A stretch of DNA of 57,428 nucleotides, filler included, from Catajapyx aquilonaris (Eukaryota), in the NCBI GenBank assembly GCA_000934665.2. It is 2 parts of 2 records of this genome, joined end to end, with 100 filler letters (N's around TTAATTAATTAA, not from the genome) between each part and the next. Parts side by side here need not be neighbours in the genome. Positions count along the whole stretch, not along the records: positions 28,795 to 57,428 come from JYFJ02004891.1; 1 more part is not named here. One strand, given 5' to 3'. The notes beneath the pieces are model-generated. The model ran no database searches. It saw only the letters and a list, made by a program, of their open reading frames with translations, and was not told the origin of the DNA. A program made the translations under genes and the position numbers. Shown here piece by piece: positions 30,577 to 42,007 of the stretch. The number at the start of each line of letters is the position of its first letter. Position 1 is the stretch's first letter.

Positions 30577-32113
30577 CTATCCGCAGTTGGTCTGGTCAAT
30601 CTTGCCCAGTTTCGAGAGGTCAGTTCCCACGTCGGTCAGCGACTTTTGCATCTTCTTCAACTGGTCATCTGGCAGGTCCTTTGTCCGGGTCATGATCCCA
30701 GAGTACAGAGCCTCATGTCCTGCAGTGAACAAGCAACCGTTTGCAGCCGCATAGTTGTCGTAGTCCGAGTCCACCACGGCCATCGTGTATTTCTCTGGAA
30801 AACAACACGTGTGTATAGACATACAAGATGACCCCGACATTTTCAATCCCCTCGCCAAAGGTTGCCAGATAAACTGAAAAAAGTGGATTATGCATCTGGT
30901 AACACTGGGTTGAGGCTCACTGCGGGGCCTGATCCGGATCAGGCCCCTGAATGAGGATAGCACGCCAAAGGTTGCCACGTAAACTGCAAAAAGGTCGATT
31001 ATACATCTGGTAACACTAGGCGAAACTGGGCGTGTCCGGGTCCGGATCAGGCCCCTGAAGGAGGATAGCACACGGAAAAATTTGCATCTGGTAACACTGT
31101 TGTTGAGGCTCTCTGCGGGGCCTGATCCGGAATAGGCCCATGAAGGAGGATAGCACGCCAAAGGTTGCCACATAAAATGTTGGATTATACATCTGGTAAC
31201 TCTGAGCGAACGGTGTTGAGGATCACTGCGGGGCCTGCTCCAAATCAGGCCCCTGAAGGAGGATAGGACACGGAAAAAAAGTGGATTATGCATCTGGTAA
31301 CACTGGGTTGAGGCTCAATGCGGGGCCAGATCCGGATTATGCCCCTGAAGGAGGATAGCACGCTAAAGGTTGCCACATAAACTAAAAAATGCTGGATTAT
31401 ACATCTGGTAACTCTGGGTTGAGGCTCACTGCGGGGCCTGCTCCAAATCAGGCCCCTGAAGGAGGATATCACACGGAAAAGAGTGGATTATGCATCTGGT
31501 AACACTGTTGTTGAGGCTCACTGCGGGGCCTGATGCGGATTAGGCCCATGAAGGAGGATACCCGCGATTGTGGAACACTTACGTCCCTTCCAGTCCACAT
31601 TTATCAGGGACGGATGATCCGGATTGTCCAGTGACATTGGCCCGTCGTCGGCGTAGAAACTTCCGTCCGCTGTCAGGATACCGGTCAGATTGGCATGGAA
31701 CTTGGTGTCACCTTTATGTTCGAAATCCACGACCAAACAGCGCATCGGAGGTTCTGCACCTTCAGCAGCCAGGAAGTAGTGAATCACCCATTTCCCCATG
31801 AACTATACGGGAGGGAAATTGCGCCAGTTACATCGCACTTTTGAAGCGCTTCCTTTCAAAACATGTTGATATGGCCCGCTTCAAAACAGGTTGAAGCGCG
31901 TCAACGGAGCGAGACATCTCAATACGAGTTGAATTTTTTGAAGCGCTTTATCACAAGTTACACGGCAATGAAGCGCTTTTAGCTGGTGTCATATATGTTA
32001 CTTACTCTCTTGGGGTCGAACTCCTTTTTCGGCACATTGCACGACCCCCAGACGCCGACGGTCAACGTCGCCAATGTCAAGACCAGCACGTAGTTGTTTG
32101 CAACGACACCCAT
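30577..32113 (-). CDS. Secreted lipocalin, cluster gene G, 3 exons, ~181 aa
   Basis: Exons 32113-32006, 31802-31583 and 30794-30577. MGVVANNYVLVLTLATLTVGVWGSCNVPKKEFDPKR|FMGKWV...MRC...VVDSDYDNYAAANGC...IMTR...DQTNCG*. Confidence 0.9.
30853..31560. repeat. Intronic ~80-110-bp tandem repeat with a palindromic core (7 copies), intron 2 of lipocalin G
   Basis: CATCTGGTAAC recurs at ~30893, 31004, 31085, 31190, 31291, 31402 and 31493; core GGGGCCTGATCCGGATCAGGCCCC. Confidence 0.92.
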
Positions 32114-32160
32114 TGTTGCAGCAGACAGAATAACTTTGCGACAGGCGACGGTACGGCTGG

Positions 32161-32168
32161 TTTTTATA
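32161..32168 (-). promoter_or_regulatory. TATA box, lipocalin G
   Basis: TATAAAAA ~48 nt upstream of the ATG. Confidence 0.65.
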
Positions 32169-32747
32169 CCCTGACAGGATAGGTGTCGTGCAAAGCAAAG
32201 GCGTGCGTCCAATCTGCGGATCTTATGATGTTGGGCAGGGCACGCATTTACACGACTGCATCCGCGACAGGTACTTAGGTTATGCAACTACACCGGACAA
32301 TTGTTTATTGCACACTGAATATGATGCTATTGCTGTTCTCAAGCGAATAGGAGCCCGATTGTTGTGATGGGGGCATGGTATGGCTTCTGCAGCGTGGGAA
32401 AAACGGGTGTTAAGATTGATCAAATAACATGATTCCAAAAAATGACTGTTACATAATGGCGAGATGTAATAACATGGGATGCACCGCGTACTTATCAAAG
32501 TGCACGCGACTTAAATTGTATGTCATCAGCACCACCGATGCGCACCGACGCTTCACTATATGTACGTGTCCCGCATTAAAAAATTCGGTGCAAAGTCACC
32601 TTGTCCGTAATCACCAGTTATTTTCCTCCATAATTGGTGACAGGCATTATCGCCACCAGCTGGAATGATGTCCCAATGGGCATTGTTGTACGGTACGGCT
32701 TCGTCAGGCTACCAAATTAGTCACGAATTGGATTTAATTTTTTTTAT

Positions 32748-40504: not shown

Positions 40505-40676
40505 CCCTCCAAGAGCCTATTCCAGAAAGATGAACAATGGCTCGTGCCAGTGTCGGACGCATACCAGGTTAGTGCACTCAGAGACAATAGGGATTCTAAG
40601 GAGGGCAAAAGCACTAAGAGGCATCTGGAGCATCGGTTTTTTTATTATTTTTTGGTGGGTGCAAAACAAGTGCATA

Positions 40677-41928
40677 TTATTTGGCATATCTCATTTCGCA
40701 ATCGACGGGGCTGAGTTTATAGAAGGTGGACACATCTACGTCGTAGGTTTTCAGTAGTTCCTTCATCCTGGCGATATGTTCTTCTGTTAGGGTGACCCCT
40801 GCTCGACCCATGATGACCCCATGGTGGTGAACAGTTCCGTCGTCCAGCTGGGTACAAGCGTAGTTGAGGCTATGGGTGGTGTAGTCAGTCTCCAGGATAT
40901 GATTGTCGTACTGGACTGAAAACAATGTCAAAAGTTCAGAGATGACCTCTCCAAATTTGAAAATAAATGGGCATTACTTCCGAGCCATGTGGCCTTCCAG
41001 TGTGAGGGTCTTTCAGGGTCCATGATATGTCCTGGACCTTCCAGCTCATGCTCATATCCAGTGTCCAGAACCGCTGTGCTGTTGCAGTACACGTTGACCT
41101 CATCCATCTTCTTGAAGTAGATATCCAGGCACTTCAGGACCGGCTCCTCGTCCGGCTTGTTCCTCATCACTTCATGGACATACCACAGGCCCTCAAACTG
41201 TCCGAAAATCAATCTATTAGTACGTAACTCAGTAACTAGTGAACCCGTTGCCAAAATTTGGCAAAACCTTATAGTCAGTACGACAGTGACAATCAAACAA
41301 CTTTAATGAGATAGCCCGCCGATTTACCACGTAGTACTAGTAATTAGTACTGTAATGACGTAACAAGCGTTATGTAGCAATTACCTACAGCGTCATAGTA
41401 GCAAGTGAAATACTTTTTGTCTATTTAAAATTGCAATGAATTATTACGAATTATTTTATAGAATTATTTCTCGTATTATGACAAACACGTATAATATTGC
41501 ATATAACTTTCGAAAAATTAAATTTTGCACACTTGTAATATTAGCACTGCCTGTACTTTTTCATTGAAAAATAACAATCAGTATTTATTGACAATGACAA
41601 ATGAATAATTATAACAAACATTATTGTAATAATTATAATGTTAAATATATATTGTAAAGATGCTGACTCCTAATGAGTCTAAAAAATTAATTTTTTGCAC
41701 ACATGCAATTGCACAAATATGCAAATCTTTCCAGCAACATTGACCCACTAAAATATTGTTTTTTTAAGATTGACAACTCAGCCTAATTATTGGCGAATAA
41801 TTTTTTTTTGCAGTTTGCTTGGATGGGTGACTCACCTTGTCCCAGTCAAATGGCAATTGCGGTTTCAATTCCGGACAGGCCTTGCACATGACAGCAAGAG
41901 ACAGCACTAGAACCAGTGATACTTTCAT
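40677..41928 (-). CDS. Secreted lipocalin (ApoD/crustacyanin-like), cluster gene A, 3 exons, ~183 aa
   Basis: Exons 41928-41836, 41197-40978 and 40915-40677, with GT-AG introns of phase 0 and 1 (552 nt). Signal-peptide-like MKVSLVLVLSLAVMCKA, then CPELKPQLPFDWDK|FEGLWY (SCR1 GxW), ILETDYTTHSLNYAC (SCR2), IMGR (SCR3) and a C-terminal Cys. TATA upstream, AATAAA downstream (~40641). Confidence 0.92.
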
Positions 41929-41999
41929 TGTCTGACTTTGACGAGTCCACAAAATATTAGCAAAAAGAAATTTCGAGATAAAAATGAAGCTCTCCCGGC

Positions 42000-42007
42000 T
42001 TTATATA
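42000..42007 (-). promoter_or_regulatory. TATA box, lipocalin A
   Basis: TATATAAA ~72 nt upstream of the ATG; the position recurs in paralogs. Confidence 0.65.

Follow-up and report, generated by a model that had tools for sequence, protein, structure and literature searches.

Seven clustered, divergent ApoD/Lazarillo-type lipocalin genes in Catajapyx aquilonaris

Gene models and their signals

The window analyzed here is a 57,428-nucleotide stretch of DNA (filler included) from Catajapyx aquilonaris. Positions 30577 to 42007 of its minus strand hold seven separate same-strand genes of 175 to 245 codons each, referred to below as g1 to g7 from the highest coordinates to the lowest. The array is bounded by the lowest base of the g7 stop codon (30577) and by the TATATAA box upstream of g1 (42007). 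The initial annotation had placed seven same-strand genes here, and this arrangement is borne out by the spliced frames, all of which are open and encode proteins of 175, 179, 181, 183, 183, 188, and 245 amino acids (aa), as well as by the introns, 13 of 13 of which are of the GT-AG type. Intron 1 is in phase 0 and interrupts the identical alignment column in all seven genes. Intron 2, absent from g5, is in phase 1 and lies in an equivalent place, within one codon, in all six of the other genes. Junctions and starts are those predicted from sequence logic and homology.

The first gene, g1 (40677 to 41928, minus strand; 183 aa), consists of exons 41928-41836, 41197-40978, and 40915-40677, with the TATATAA box at 42007 and an AATAAA signal at 40646. 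It is followed on the same strand by g2 (39548 to 40403; 175 aa; exons 40403-40308, 40246-40033, and 39765-39548), which has TATAAAA at 40504 and AATAAA at 39491, an alternative acceptor for exon 3 at 39771 besides the one at 39765, and a 31-nt tandem repeat within intron 2. The minus-strand gene g3 (38434 to 39199; 179 aa) has exons 39199-39098, 38926-38704, and 38648-38434, flanked by TATAAA at 39245 and ATTAAA at 38394. In g4 (37141 to 38268, minus strand; 188 aa; exons 38268-38146, 37649-37436, and 37370-37141), a TATAAA box is present at 38317 and the nearest AATAAA is at 36816. The only two-exon gene is g5 (35505 to 36172, minus strand; 183 aa; exons 36172-36056 and 35939-35505), with TATATAA at 36228 and AATAAA at 35450. 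The longest protein, of 245 aa, is encoded by g6 (32748 to 35258, minus strand), whose exons 35258-35157, 33440-33227, and 33169-32748 are followed by ATTAAA at 32738 and whose intron 1, of 1716 nt, contains inverted repeats. Finally, g7 (30577 to 32113, minus strand; 181 aa) comprises exons 32113-32006, 31802-31583, and 30794-30577, has TATAAAA at 32168 and AATAAA at 30486, and carries a 788-nt intron 2 whose length is taken up by a minisatellite.

Six of the seven genes have a TATA[AT]A box 46 to 101 nt 5' of the ATG, and the initial annotation had likewise noted a TATA box in six; g6 is the exception, and the 250 nt next to its ATG contain no such element. Since a random window position has such a box in the 46-101 nt range with a probability of 0.064, finding at least six in seven genes by chance has p ~4e-7. 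Similarly, A[AT]TAAA is found 10 to 91 nt past the stop codon in six genes (chance p ~5e-5), and in g4 it is at +325. Thus, TATA-like boxes and poly(A) signals both occur far above chance, and the seven units are separate genes. A tblastn search with the seven models detected no eighth or decayed copy in the window (no HSP outside the model exons was better than E=0.08); all seven genes are intact, in agreement with the earlier impression that no copy is pseudogenized. An arrestin gene flanks the array, and its best relatives are just 44 to 51% identical to it, in keeping with a poorly sampled lineage.

Family membership, fold, and divergence

All seven genes encode ApoD/Lazarillo-type lipocalins. 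When the seven models are aligned, invariant residues are both fixed positions (G and W) of the GxW motif, the SCR3 Arg, and four Cys residues in the ApoD positions, just as the initial annotation had described. The cysteines are located in a CP or CN pair near the N terminus, approximately 17 to 20 residues past GxW, 8 residues past the TDY motif, and at the C terminus; g1 and g5 have one extra Cys each. The TDY-like motif (SCR2), said to be common to all copies, holds in six of them, as TDY in g1, g4, g5, and g6, SDY in g7, and TEY in g3, and is degenerate (SEE) in g2. Every protein has a hydrophobic leader ahead of its first conserved Cys, with best 10-residue Kyte-Doolittle windows of 2.26 to 3.57, which confirms the leaders reported earlier.

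A hidden Markov model (HMM) was prepared from 40 ApoD-like database proteins. Against it, the seven full spliced models score 77 to 129 bits (g1, 100.2; g2, 76.7; g3, 123.1; g4, 129.0; g6, 123.5; g7, 95.9), and the best of 140 shuffled controls reaches 5.4 bits. The N-terminal halves, which took no part in finding the 40 proteins of the HMM, score 29.5 to 49.4 bits, including 42.3 bits for g2. These scores, together with the PDB and fold matches given below, uphold the assignment of the genes to the two-disulfide ApoD/Lazarillo type made in the initial annotation. The Pfam comparison proposed there was run on 13 exon pieces. Each gene has at least one piece that matches PF00061 or PF08212 at E<=0.12; 3 of the 13 pieces are above the gathering cut-off, 5 are below it, and 5 are without a lipocalin-family match. 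PF00061 matches above the cut-off come from exon 3 of g4 (31.4 bits), g6 (23.7 bits), and g7 (24.4 bits), and those below it include exon 3 of g1 (19.0 bits) and exon 2 of g2 (17.4 bits).

Sequence searches of the PDB had ApoD as the top match for g1 (4.8e-4, exon 3), g3 (1.1e-6), g4 (2.7e-10), and g5 (3.9e-6, with phmmer). For g6, sandercyanin (1.2e-7) came first with ApoD close behind (1.5e-7), and the same order was seen for g7 (sandercyanin, 3.5e-7; ApoD close behind; crustacyanin, 1.6e-4); exon 3 of g2 matched no sequence in the PDB at E<=1. Of 30 database matches whose records were consulted, most of those bearing a name are called "apolipoprotein D(-like)". The closest library protein to each of the seven is 21 to 33% identical, with none above 33% in the libraries searched. 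The initial annotation had set a family expansion against the possibility that each gene is a 1:1 ortholog of a known lipocalin, and these libraries contain no close 1:1 ortholog of any of them. The exhaustive profile search used the 77 C-terminal positions of alignment A5 and therefore covered half of the domain; a word-indexed search with exon 2 of g5 found no candidate. The exon-3 profile A3, compared with longer proteins, had three matches. Two of them are insect lipocalins (at 42 and 37 bits), and the third is a fungal NACHT protein, which is unrelated and was taken as a chance match.

The predicted fold was checked by modeling for g5 alone of the seven. The AF2 model of its exon 2 (pLDDT, 90.5; pTM, 0.85) has eight strands, from E3-11 through E99-108, and a C-terminal helix at 115-127. 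At E<=0.001, Foldseek found 439 matches in the PDB, with human ApoD (2hzq; TM, 0.83) at the top and only lipocalins among those listed. Crustacyanin, sandercyanin, and bilin-binding protein follow at ranks 2 to 17, with TM scores of 0.76 to 0.85 to g5. A millipede hydroxynitrile lyase with a lipocalin fold was also considered as a relative and dropped, being absent from both the PDB sequence matches and the fold matches.

The paralogs are only 19 to 38% identical in pairwise comparisons, so the earlier impression that they share little beyond the motifs is correct; g2 is the most divergent copy. Such low identity with the fold-defining residues kept indicates that the scaffold has long been under purifying selection, whereas the pocket and loops were free to change.

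Origin of the cluster and alternative explanations

The initial annotation had further proposed that the seven genes form a monophyletic expansion, with which the tree is compatible. The comparison set, 40 of 153 fetched proteins, is biased, as the 153 were the top matches to a profile made from the window genes, and the tree rows included no crustacyanin. In this set, the seven genes cluster loosely and above chance, requiring 3 label changes on the tree versus a shuffled mean of 6.7 (none of 500 shuffles was as low), and the AU test does not reject their monophyly (p-AU, 0.388). However, the joint group of the seven has UFBoot and SH-aLRT support of 70 and 29, and they form one clade in 0 of 200 bootstrap trees. 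This group also holds four foreign long-branch rows, from an acoel, a mosquito, a mayfly, and one unnamed source, and g2 pairs with the acoel row in a join that the program flagged as long branches meeting. A common origin is further favored by the adjacent genes g3 and g4, which are sisters with support of 100/96, and by the absence of the ApoD pocket Trp from all seven proteins. Because the joint group is weak, mixed with long branches, and absent from the 200 bootstrap trees as a clade of seven, a single lineage-specific origin is allowed by these data and not demonstrated. We infer from the sequences that the seven genes probably duplicated within their own lineage.

The explanation that we consider likely, with good confidence, is that old tandem duplications of one ApoD/Lazarillo-type lipocalin gene of arthropods gave rise to the array, in which seven independent, intact genes are packed compactly head to tail. 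Each member would have a core promoter and a poly(A) signal to itself, along with a separate stop codon and a predicted signal peptide. Judging from the hydrophobic leaders, each product is probably secreted. It would adopt the lipocalin fold, an eight-stranded beta-barrel followed by a C-terminal helix, probably braced by two disulfides that pair, as in ApoD, Cys1 with Cys3 and Cys2 with Cys4. A small hydrophobic ligand is probably transported in this barrel.

Two other explanations concern the nature of the seven units themselves. They might be domains of one or a few multi-lipocalin genes of the "polycalin" type, and the highest-scoring database proteins are many-repeat giants, namely P0004 from Leptosia nina (3464 aa, 19 matched stretches) and P0008 (1845 aa, 33 matched stretches). 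The lepidopteran polycalin-like giants such as P0004 resemble the array in having ApoD-like domains in a row and in being top scorers against the window profile. In contrast to these proteins, the domains in the array are separate genes with their own starts, leaders, stops, and signals, rather than several domains within one frame. Every unit opens with a separate ATG and a hydrophobic leader, and its frame closes at a stop codon 0 to 6 residues past the final conserved Cys (in g6, 63 residues past it). Six of the seven units are followed by a poly(A) signal, and in six of seven cases there is a TATA-like box ahead of the next unit, all of which makes a polycalin extremely unlikely. That some copies are silent relics not yet disabled by mutation is improbable, too. 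The absence of a TATA-like box from g6 and of a nearby poly(A) signal from g4 would fit this idea, as would the strong divergence of g2 with its degenerate SCR2 motif. However, the copies are old (19 to 38% identity), and yet all seven keep their frames, splice sites, four Cys residues, GxW, and Arg, and none of them falls below 76.7 bits on the independent family HMM. Old copies that all keep frames, motifs, and HMM scores are a pattern that is not expected without purifying selection.

The initial annotation had envisaged different ligands for the proteins, gland, pigment, or venom roles, and hetero-oligomers, which are hypotheses here. Two more proposals address what the products of such a cluster carry. 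Transport of semiochemicals, i.e., pheromones or odorants, in glands or sensory organs is a role that has been proposed for the large lipocalin repertoires of insects, crustaceans, and chelicerates, which are clustered and highly divergent (PMC8214410), and neighboring lipocalin paralogs of a termite are expressed in different glands and in antennae (PMC8785959). The array shares with these genes the clustering, deep divergence, and separate promoters; however, the role itself is unproven in PMC8214410, and we regard this assignment as rather unlikely. The array could also be a battery of pigment carriers that bind carotenoids, like crustacyanin, or biliverdin, like insecticyanin and bilin-binding protein, some of them maybe acting as color-tuning heterodimers. 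The source genome is of the arthropod type and probably pancrustacean, crustacyanins, sandercyanin, and bilin-binding protein take ranks 2 to 17 of the g5 structural matches, and the biliverdin binder sandercyanin is the best PDB sequence match of g6 and g7, with crustacyanin at 1.6e-4 for g7. Against this, ApoD is the top sequence match for four of the seven proteins and the top fold match for g5, the crustacyanin matches are weak (E from 1.6e-4 to 0.035), and the named database matches include no close crustacyanin relative, which leaves a pigment battery an unlikely option.

Pocket, His-rich tail, and relation to known lipocalins

A Trp residue in the ligand pocket is a hallmark of chordate ApoD and not a requirement of the wider Lazarillo group. 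In the respective alignment column, g1 to g7 have V, S, G, V, A, A, and G, so that Trp is found in none of the seven; it is present in 28 of the 40 database relatives. As this Trp is a chordate-ApoD hallmark, its loss argues against the genes being canonical ApoD and not against their place in the wider group. Because all seven proteins have a small residue in place of the pocket Trp, they probably have other cavities and other ligands than canonical ApoD.

A second peculiarity is the His-rich C-terminal extension of g6 (32751 to 32939, minus strand), which comprises 63 residues past the last conserved Cys, including 17 His and 9 Pro, and overlaps two short 18-nt tandem repeats. None of 12 database lipocalin tails compared with it has more than one His. 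The tail is predicted to be translated, provided that there is no unseen splice, and it may serve in metal-ion or surface binding. As a tentative scenario, which is possible and short of likely, the array could be a private, pancrustacean-lineage radiation of a Lazarillo-like subgroup, in which the loss of the pocket Trp created a roomier cavity, each paralog binds a different lineage-specific ligand, be it a pigment, a pheromone, or a compound used in defense, and a His-rich tail sensitive to metals or pH serves to tether or regulate g6. Such a combination of Trp loss, paralog-specific ligands, and a His tail was not described for lipocalins in the literature searched.

Like the ApoD/Lazarillo proteins (human ApoD, 2hzq; Lazarillo, NLaz, and GLaz), the array proteins consist of a leader and a single lipocalin domain. 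Grasshopper Lazarillo has a hydrophobic GPI-type tail, and none was seen in the seven proteins. They share with ApoD the N-terminal C-P...P...F-D motif before GxW, the TDY motif, the SCR3 Arg, and the four Cys residues in the ApoD positions (ApoD features as given in PMC8530192). On the other hand, their identity to any database relative is 21 to 33%, the pocket Trp, which in human ApoD is Trp127 and is named as conserved in PMC8530192, is replaced in all of them, and there are two or three coding exons versus the four described for chordate ApoD in the same source. The seven clustered copies also contrast with a single ApoD gene, as does the His-rich tail of g6. The crustacyanins, sandercyanin, and bilin-binding protein/insecticyanin belong to the same two-disulfide lipocalin branch and are close to the g5 model in fold (TM, 0.76 to 0.85), whereas the sequence matches of crustacyanins, sandercyanin, and bilin-binding protein to the array are weak (E from 1e-7 to 0.6).

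The closest parallels are the clustered, strongly divergent, lineage-specific lipocalin expansions that have been described in insects, chelicerates, and crustaceans (PMC8214410, PMC8785959). These include clades A and B of Reticulitermes speratus, the Bombyx and Helicoverpa clusters, and the 49 genes of Tetranychus urticae, which, like the array, are tandem, strongly diverged paralogs under separate regulation; in both sources, such clusters are interpreted as neo- or subfunctionalized carriers. The array differs from them in coming from another, poorly sampled lineage. The suggestion that it represents an undescribed system thus does not hold, since comparable arthropod expansions are already on record (PMC8214410, PMC8785959). 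The array is a real but fairly ordinary expansion and no new kind of system.

The analysis annotates seven previously unrecognized genes for predicted secreted carriers in a lineage with few sequenced relatives, and it is a further example of the tandem expansion and rapid divergence that are typical of lipocalins in arthropods. Ligand-binding and structural work can take as concrete handles the lack of the pocket Trp in all seven proteins and the His-rich extension of g6.

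Structure of the lipocalin genes and their surroundings

Seven sets of lipocalin-like pieces were located as stop-to-stop frames on the minus strand between positions 30000 and 42500 of the window, and gene models were derived from a splice-site scan and, at two junction regions, from the sequence read directly. The resulting minus-strand genes, numbered from high to low coordinates, are g1 (exons 41928-41836, 41197-40978, and 40915-40677; 183 aa), g2 (40403-40308, 40246-40033, and 39765-39548; 175 aa), g3 (39199-39098, 38926-38704, and 38648-38434; 179 aa), g4 (38268-38146, 37649-37436, and 37370-37141; 188 aa), g5 (36172-36056 and 35939-35505; 183 aa), g6 (35258-35157, 33440-33227, and 33169-32748; 245 aa), and g7 (32113-32006, 31802-31583, and 30794-30577; 181 aa). 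All 13 introns have GT-AG borders. Intron 1 is in phase 0 and lies directly 5' of the F/Y-x-G-x-W motif in every gene; intron 2, in phase 1, is found 8 to 9 residues ahead of the TDY motif in six genes and is absent from g5. Intron lengths range from 55 to 1716 nt (55 to 267 nt for five of the six second introns), intergenic spacers are 165 to 968 nt long, and the G+C content of the array, 0.43 to 0.50, is above that of the flanks. For g2, an alternative acceptor of nearly equal quality in the splice-site scan is located at 39771, six bases upstream of the chosen one.

The description of the array in the initial annotation is borne out on all points that can be checked from the models, alignment, motif counts, and tblastn. 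The G and W of the GxW motif (SCR1), the SCR3 Arg, four positionally conserved Cys residues, and the Pro following the first Cys region are invariant in the seven-model alignment, and each protein has a hydrophobic N-terminal stretch ahead of the first conserved Cys. The SCR2 motif, described there as TDY-like in all seven, is TDY, SDY, or TEY in every gene except g2, which has a degenerate SEE. The low similarity of the paralogs is reflected in pairwise identities of 19 to 38% (g3 and g4 being the closest pair). One or more N-x-S/T sites occur in each product, and predicted pI values lie between 4.5 and 6.8. The TATA box claimed for six genes is indeed present, as TATA[AT]A, 46 to 101 nt upstream of the ATG in all but g6 (chance P of ~4e-7), and A[AT]TAAA follows the stop codon by 10 to 91 nt in six genes and only at +325 in g4 (chance P of ~5e-5), both values coming from comparison with random positions of the window. 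A tblastn search across the window, which took in the array's long intron and its spacers, detected no additional copy or relic of these genes.

Several introns contain repeats. Most of the 788-nt intron 2 of g7 is occupied by a minisatellite (30853-31572) with nested periods of ~92 to 111 and 203 nt and seven copies of a 63-nt core, 70 to 100% identical to the reference copy, which produces a long spurious open frame. Inverted repeats at 34526-34634 and 34686-35069 (g6 intron 1) and at 37798-38007 (g4 intron 1) comprise a near-perfect 54-nt palindrome and 135-nt and 61-nt inverted pairs that are 90 to 98% complementary; such MITE-like insertions account for the unusual length of these introns. 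Intron 2 of g2 (39800-40010) carries 4.4 copies of a 31-nt tandem repeat plus a direct repeat of 51 nt; palindromic words resembling CTGCGCAGAC are abundant there. Long plus-strand open frames at 39407-40036 (209 aa) and 40227-40757 (176 aa) run opposite g2 and the spacer between g1 and g2; the G+C-rich coding strand, together with the repeats, most likely gives rise to them. Elsewhere in the window, short tandem repeats at 12455-13035 leave several frames open on both strands, with repeating peptide-like units such as SHLGEAILGKPSWG; this block is probably satellite DNA, not a gene. Upstream of the array, two large and very similar minus-strand exons (49744-50238 and 52583-53038) each match the last part of Arrestin_N and the first part of Arrestin_C with 64 bits, suggesting two tandem arrestin-domain (ARRDC-like) genes adjoining the lipocalins. 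Their best database relatives are only 44% (cricket) and 51% (clam shrimp) identical; the source of the window is taken to be a poorly sampled pancrustacean.

Affiliation with the ApoD/Lazarillo branch

All seven proteins are lipocalins of the ApoD/Lazarillo branch. Pfam and PDB sequence searches used contiguous exon pieces; each gene had one or more pieces listed under PF00061 or PF08212, with only 3 of the 13 pieces (exon 3 of g4, g6, and g7) passing the curated cutoff and 5 lacking a lipocalin-family match. Human apolipoprotein D was the top PDB match for g1 (4.8e-4), g3 (1.1e-6), g4 (2.7e-10), and g5 (3.9e-6); for g6 and g7, it was sandercyanin, an ApoD-like fish protein (~1e-7), followed by ApoD and crustacyanins, and exon 3 of g2 had no PDB match at E ≤ 1. 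Exon 2 of g5, whose product runs from GxW to the C terminus of the mature protein, was modeled with a 47-row alignment (A6) as eight strands and a C-terminal helix (pLDDT, 90.5; pTM, 0.85). Foldseek placed ApoD (2hzq; TM, 0.83) first, then crustacyanin C1/A1, sandercyanin, and bilin-binding protein; the nearest ESM Atlas neighbors, arthropod lipocalin clusters, are a lead only. An HMM built from 40 database ApoD-like proteins gave the spliced models 76.7 to 129.0 bits and their N-terminal halves, unused in finding those 40 proteins, 29.5 to 49.4 bits, compared with a maximum of 5.4 bits for 140 shuffles; this result also supports the exon joins in general.

A word-indexed search with g5 returned no matches; when the C-terminal halves of all seven were used as a profile, the only lipocalins returned were two from insects. 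An exhaustive HMMER search with the same half-domain profile (77 positions) retrieved 934 proteins at E ≤ 0.001, 63 of them at E ≤ 1e-10. Single-domain matches scored 50 to 64 bits; the highest scores went to giant multilipocalin proteins, such as P0004 from the butterfly Leptosia nina with 19 matched stretches. These giants (P0004 to P0021, of which that of L. nina is the one named) are predicted proteins of 870 to 3464 aa with 5 to 33 ApoD-like repeats; they are genuine polycalins or else tandem arrays that gene prediction has joined. Of the 30 matches looked up, most of those with a name were annotated as "apolipoprotein D" or "apolipoprotein D-like"; the named ones came from vertebrates, amphioxus, hemichordates, and gastropods as well as a tardigrade, a prawn, a mosquito, and a mayfly. 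Unnamed or hypothetical entries included one acoel protein and several from insects. In blastp comparisons of the seven spliced models with 153 fetched proteins, best identities were only 21 to 33%; together with the search results, this indicates that the libraries searched contain no close counterpart, such as a 1:1 ortholog, of any of the seven.

Probable common origin and comparison with known lipocalins

For a tree, we kept 40 of the 153 fetched proteins (160 to 300 aa, containing G-x-W), omitting 113 giants and fragments, and ran IQ-TREE on 47 rows. All seven genes fell into a single group of 11 with weak support (UFBoot, 70; SH-aLRT, 29), together with four long branches (acoel, mosquito, mayfly, and one unnamed). 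Without g2, the other six formed part of a group of nine (82/65); g3 and g4 were sisters (100/96), and g5, g1, and g7 grouped together (81/81). A single lineage-specific origin would be compatible with the tree: the array label required 3 changes on the tree, compared with a mean of 6.7 for shuffled labels (none of 500 as low), and constraining the seven to stay together was not rejected by the AU test (delta lnL, 3.81; P = 0.388), but a single clade of seven appeared in none of 200 bootstrap trees. Long-branch attraction could inflate this clustering, and the program flagged g2 and the acoel row as long branches meeting. Common origin draws independent support from adjacency, shared intron positions and phases, and the shared residue state at one pocket position. 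In the column of human Trp127, named as a conserved ApoD residue in the review PMC8530192, g1 to g7 have small residues (V, S, G, V, A, A, and G, respectively), whereas Trp is present in 28 of the 40 database relatives; the four foreign rows grouping with the array also lack it.

These proteins are not canonical ApoD, since they lack the pocket Trp, are encoded by two or three coding exons rather than four, and come in seven copies. Nor is the array a polycalin, as every unit begins with a start codon and leader of its own and ends in a separate stop codon. The initial annotation considered it the best candidate for an undescribed system in the window, a reading that is not supported: comparable tandem clusters of strongly diverged, separately expressed lipocalins are already known in arthropods. 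Zhu et al. describe diverged lipocalins of insects, crustaceans, and chelicerates, with clusters in Bombyx and Helicoverpa (PMC8214410), and a termite genome has 18 lipocalin genes in lineage-specific clades, with neighbors expressed in different glands and antennae (PMC8785959).

Proposed function

The predicted tail of g6, 63 residues after the last Cys, includes 17 His and 9 Pro, whereas in database relatives none of 12 extended tails compared has more than one His; a metal- or surface-binding role would be a guess. That all seven have lost the pocket Trp suggests a cavity changed from that of canonical ApoD and probably larger. Judging by family membership, each gene would probably be transcribed from its own TATA-type promoter, and its product would probably enter the secretory pathway, form the ApoD-type pair of disulfides, and carry a small hydrophobic molecule outside the cell. 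The retention of scaffold residues in such old copies fits long-term selection on each of them.
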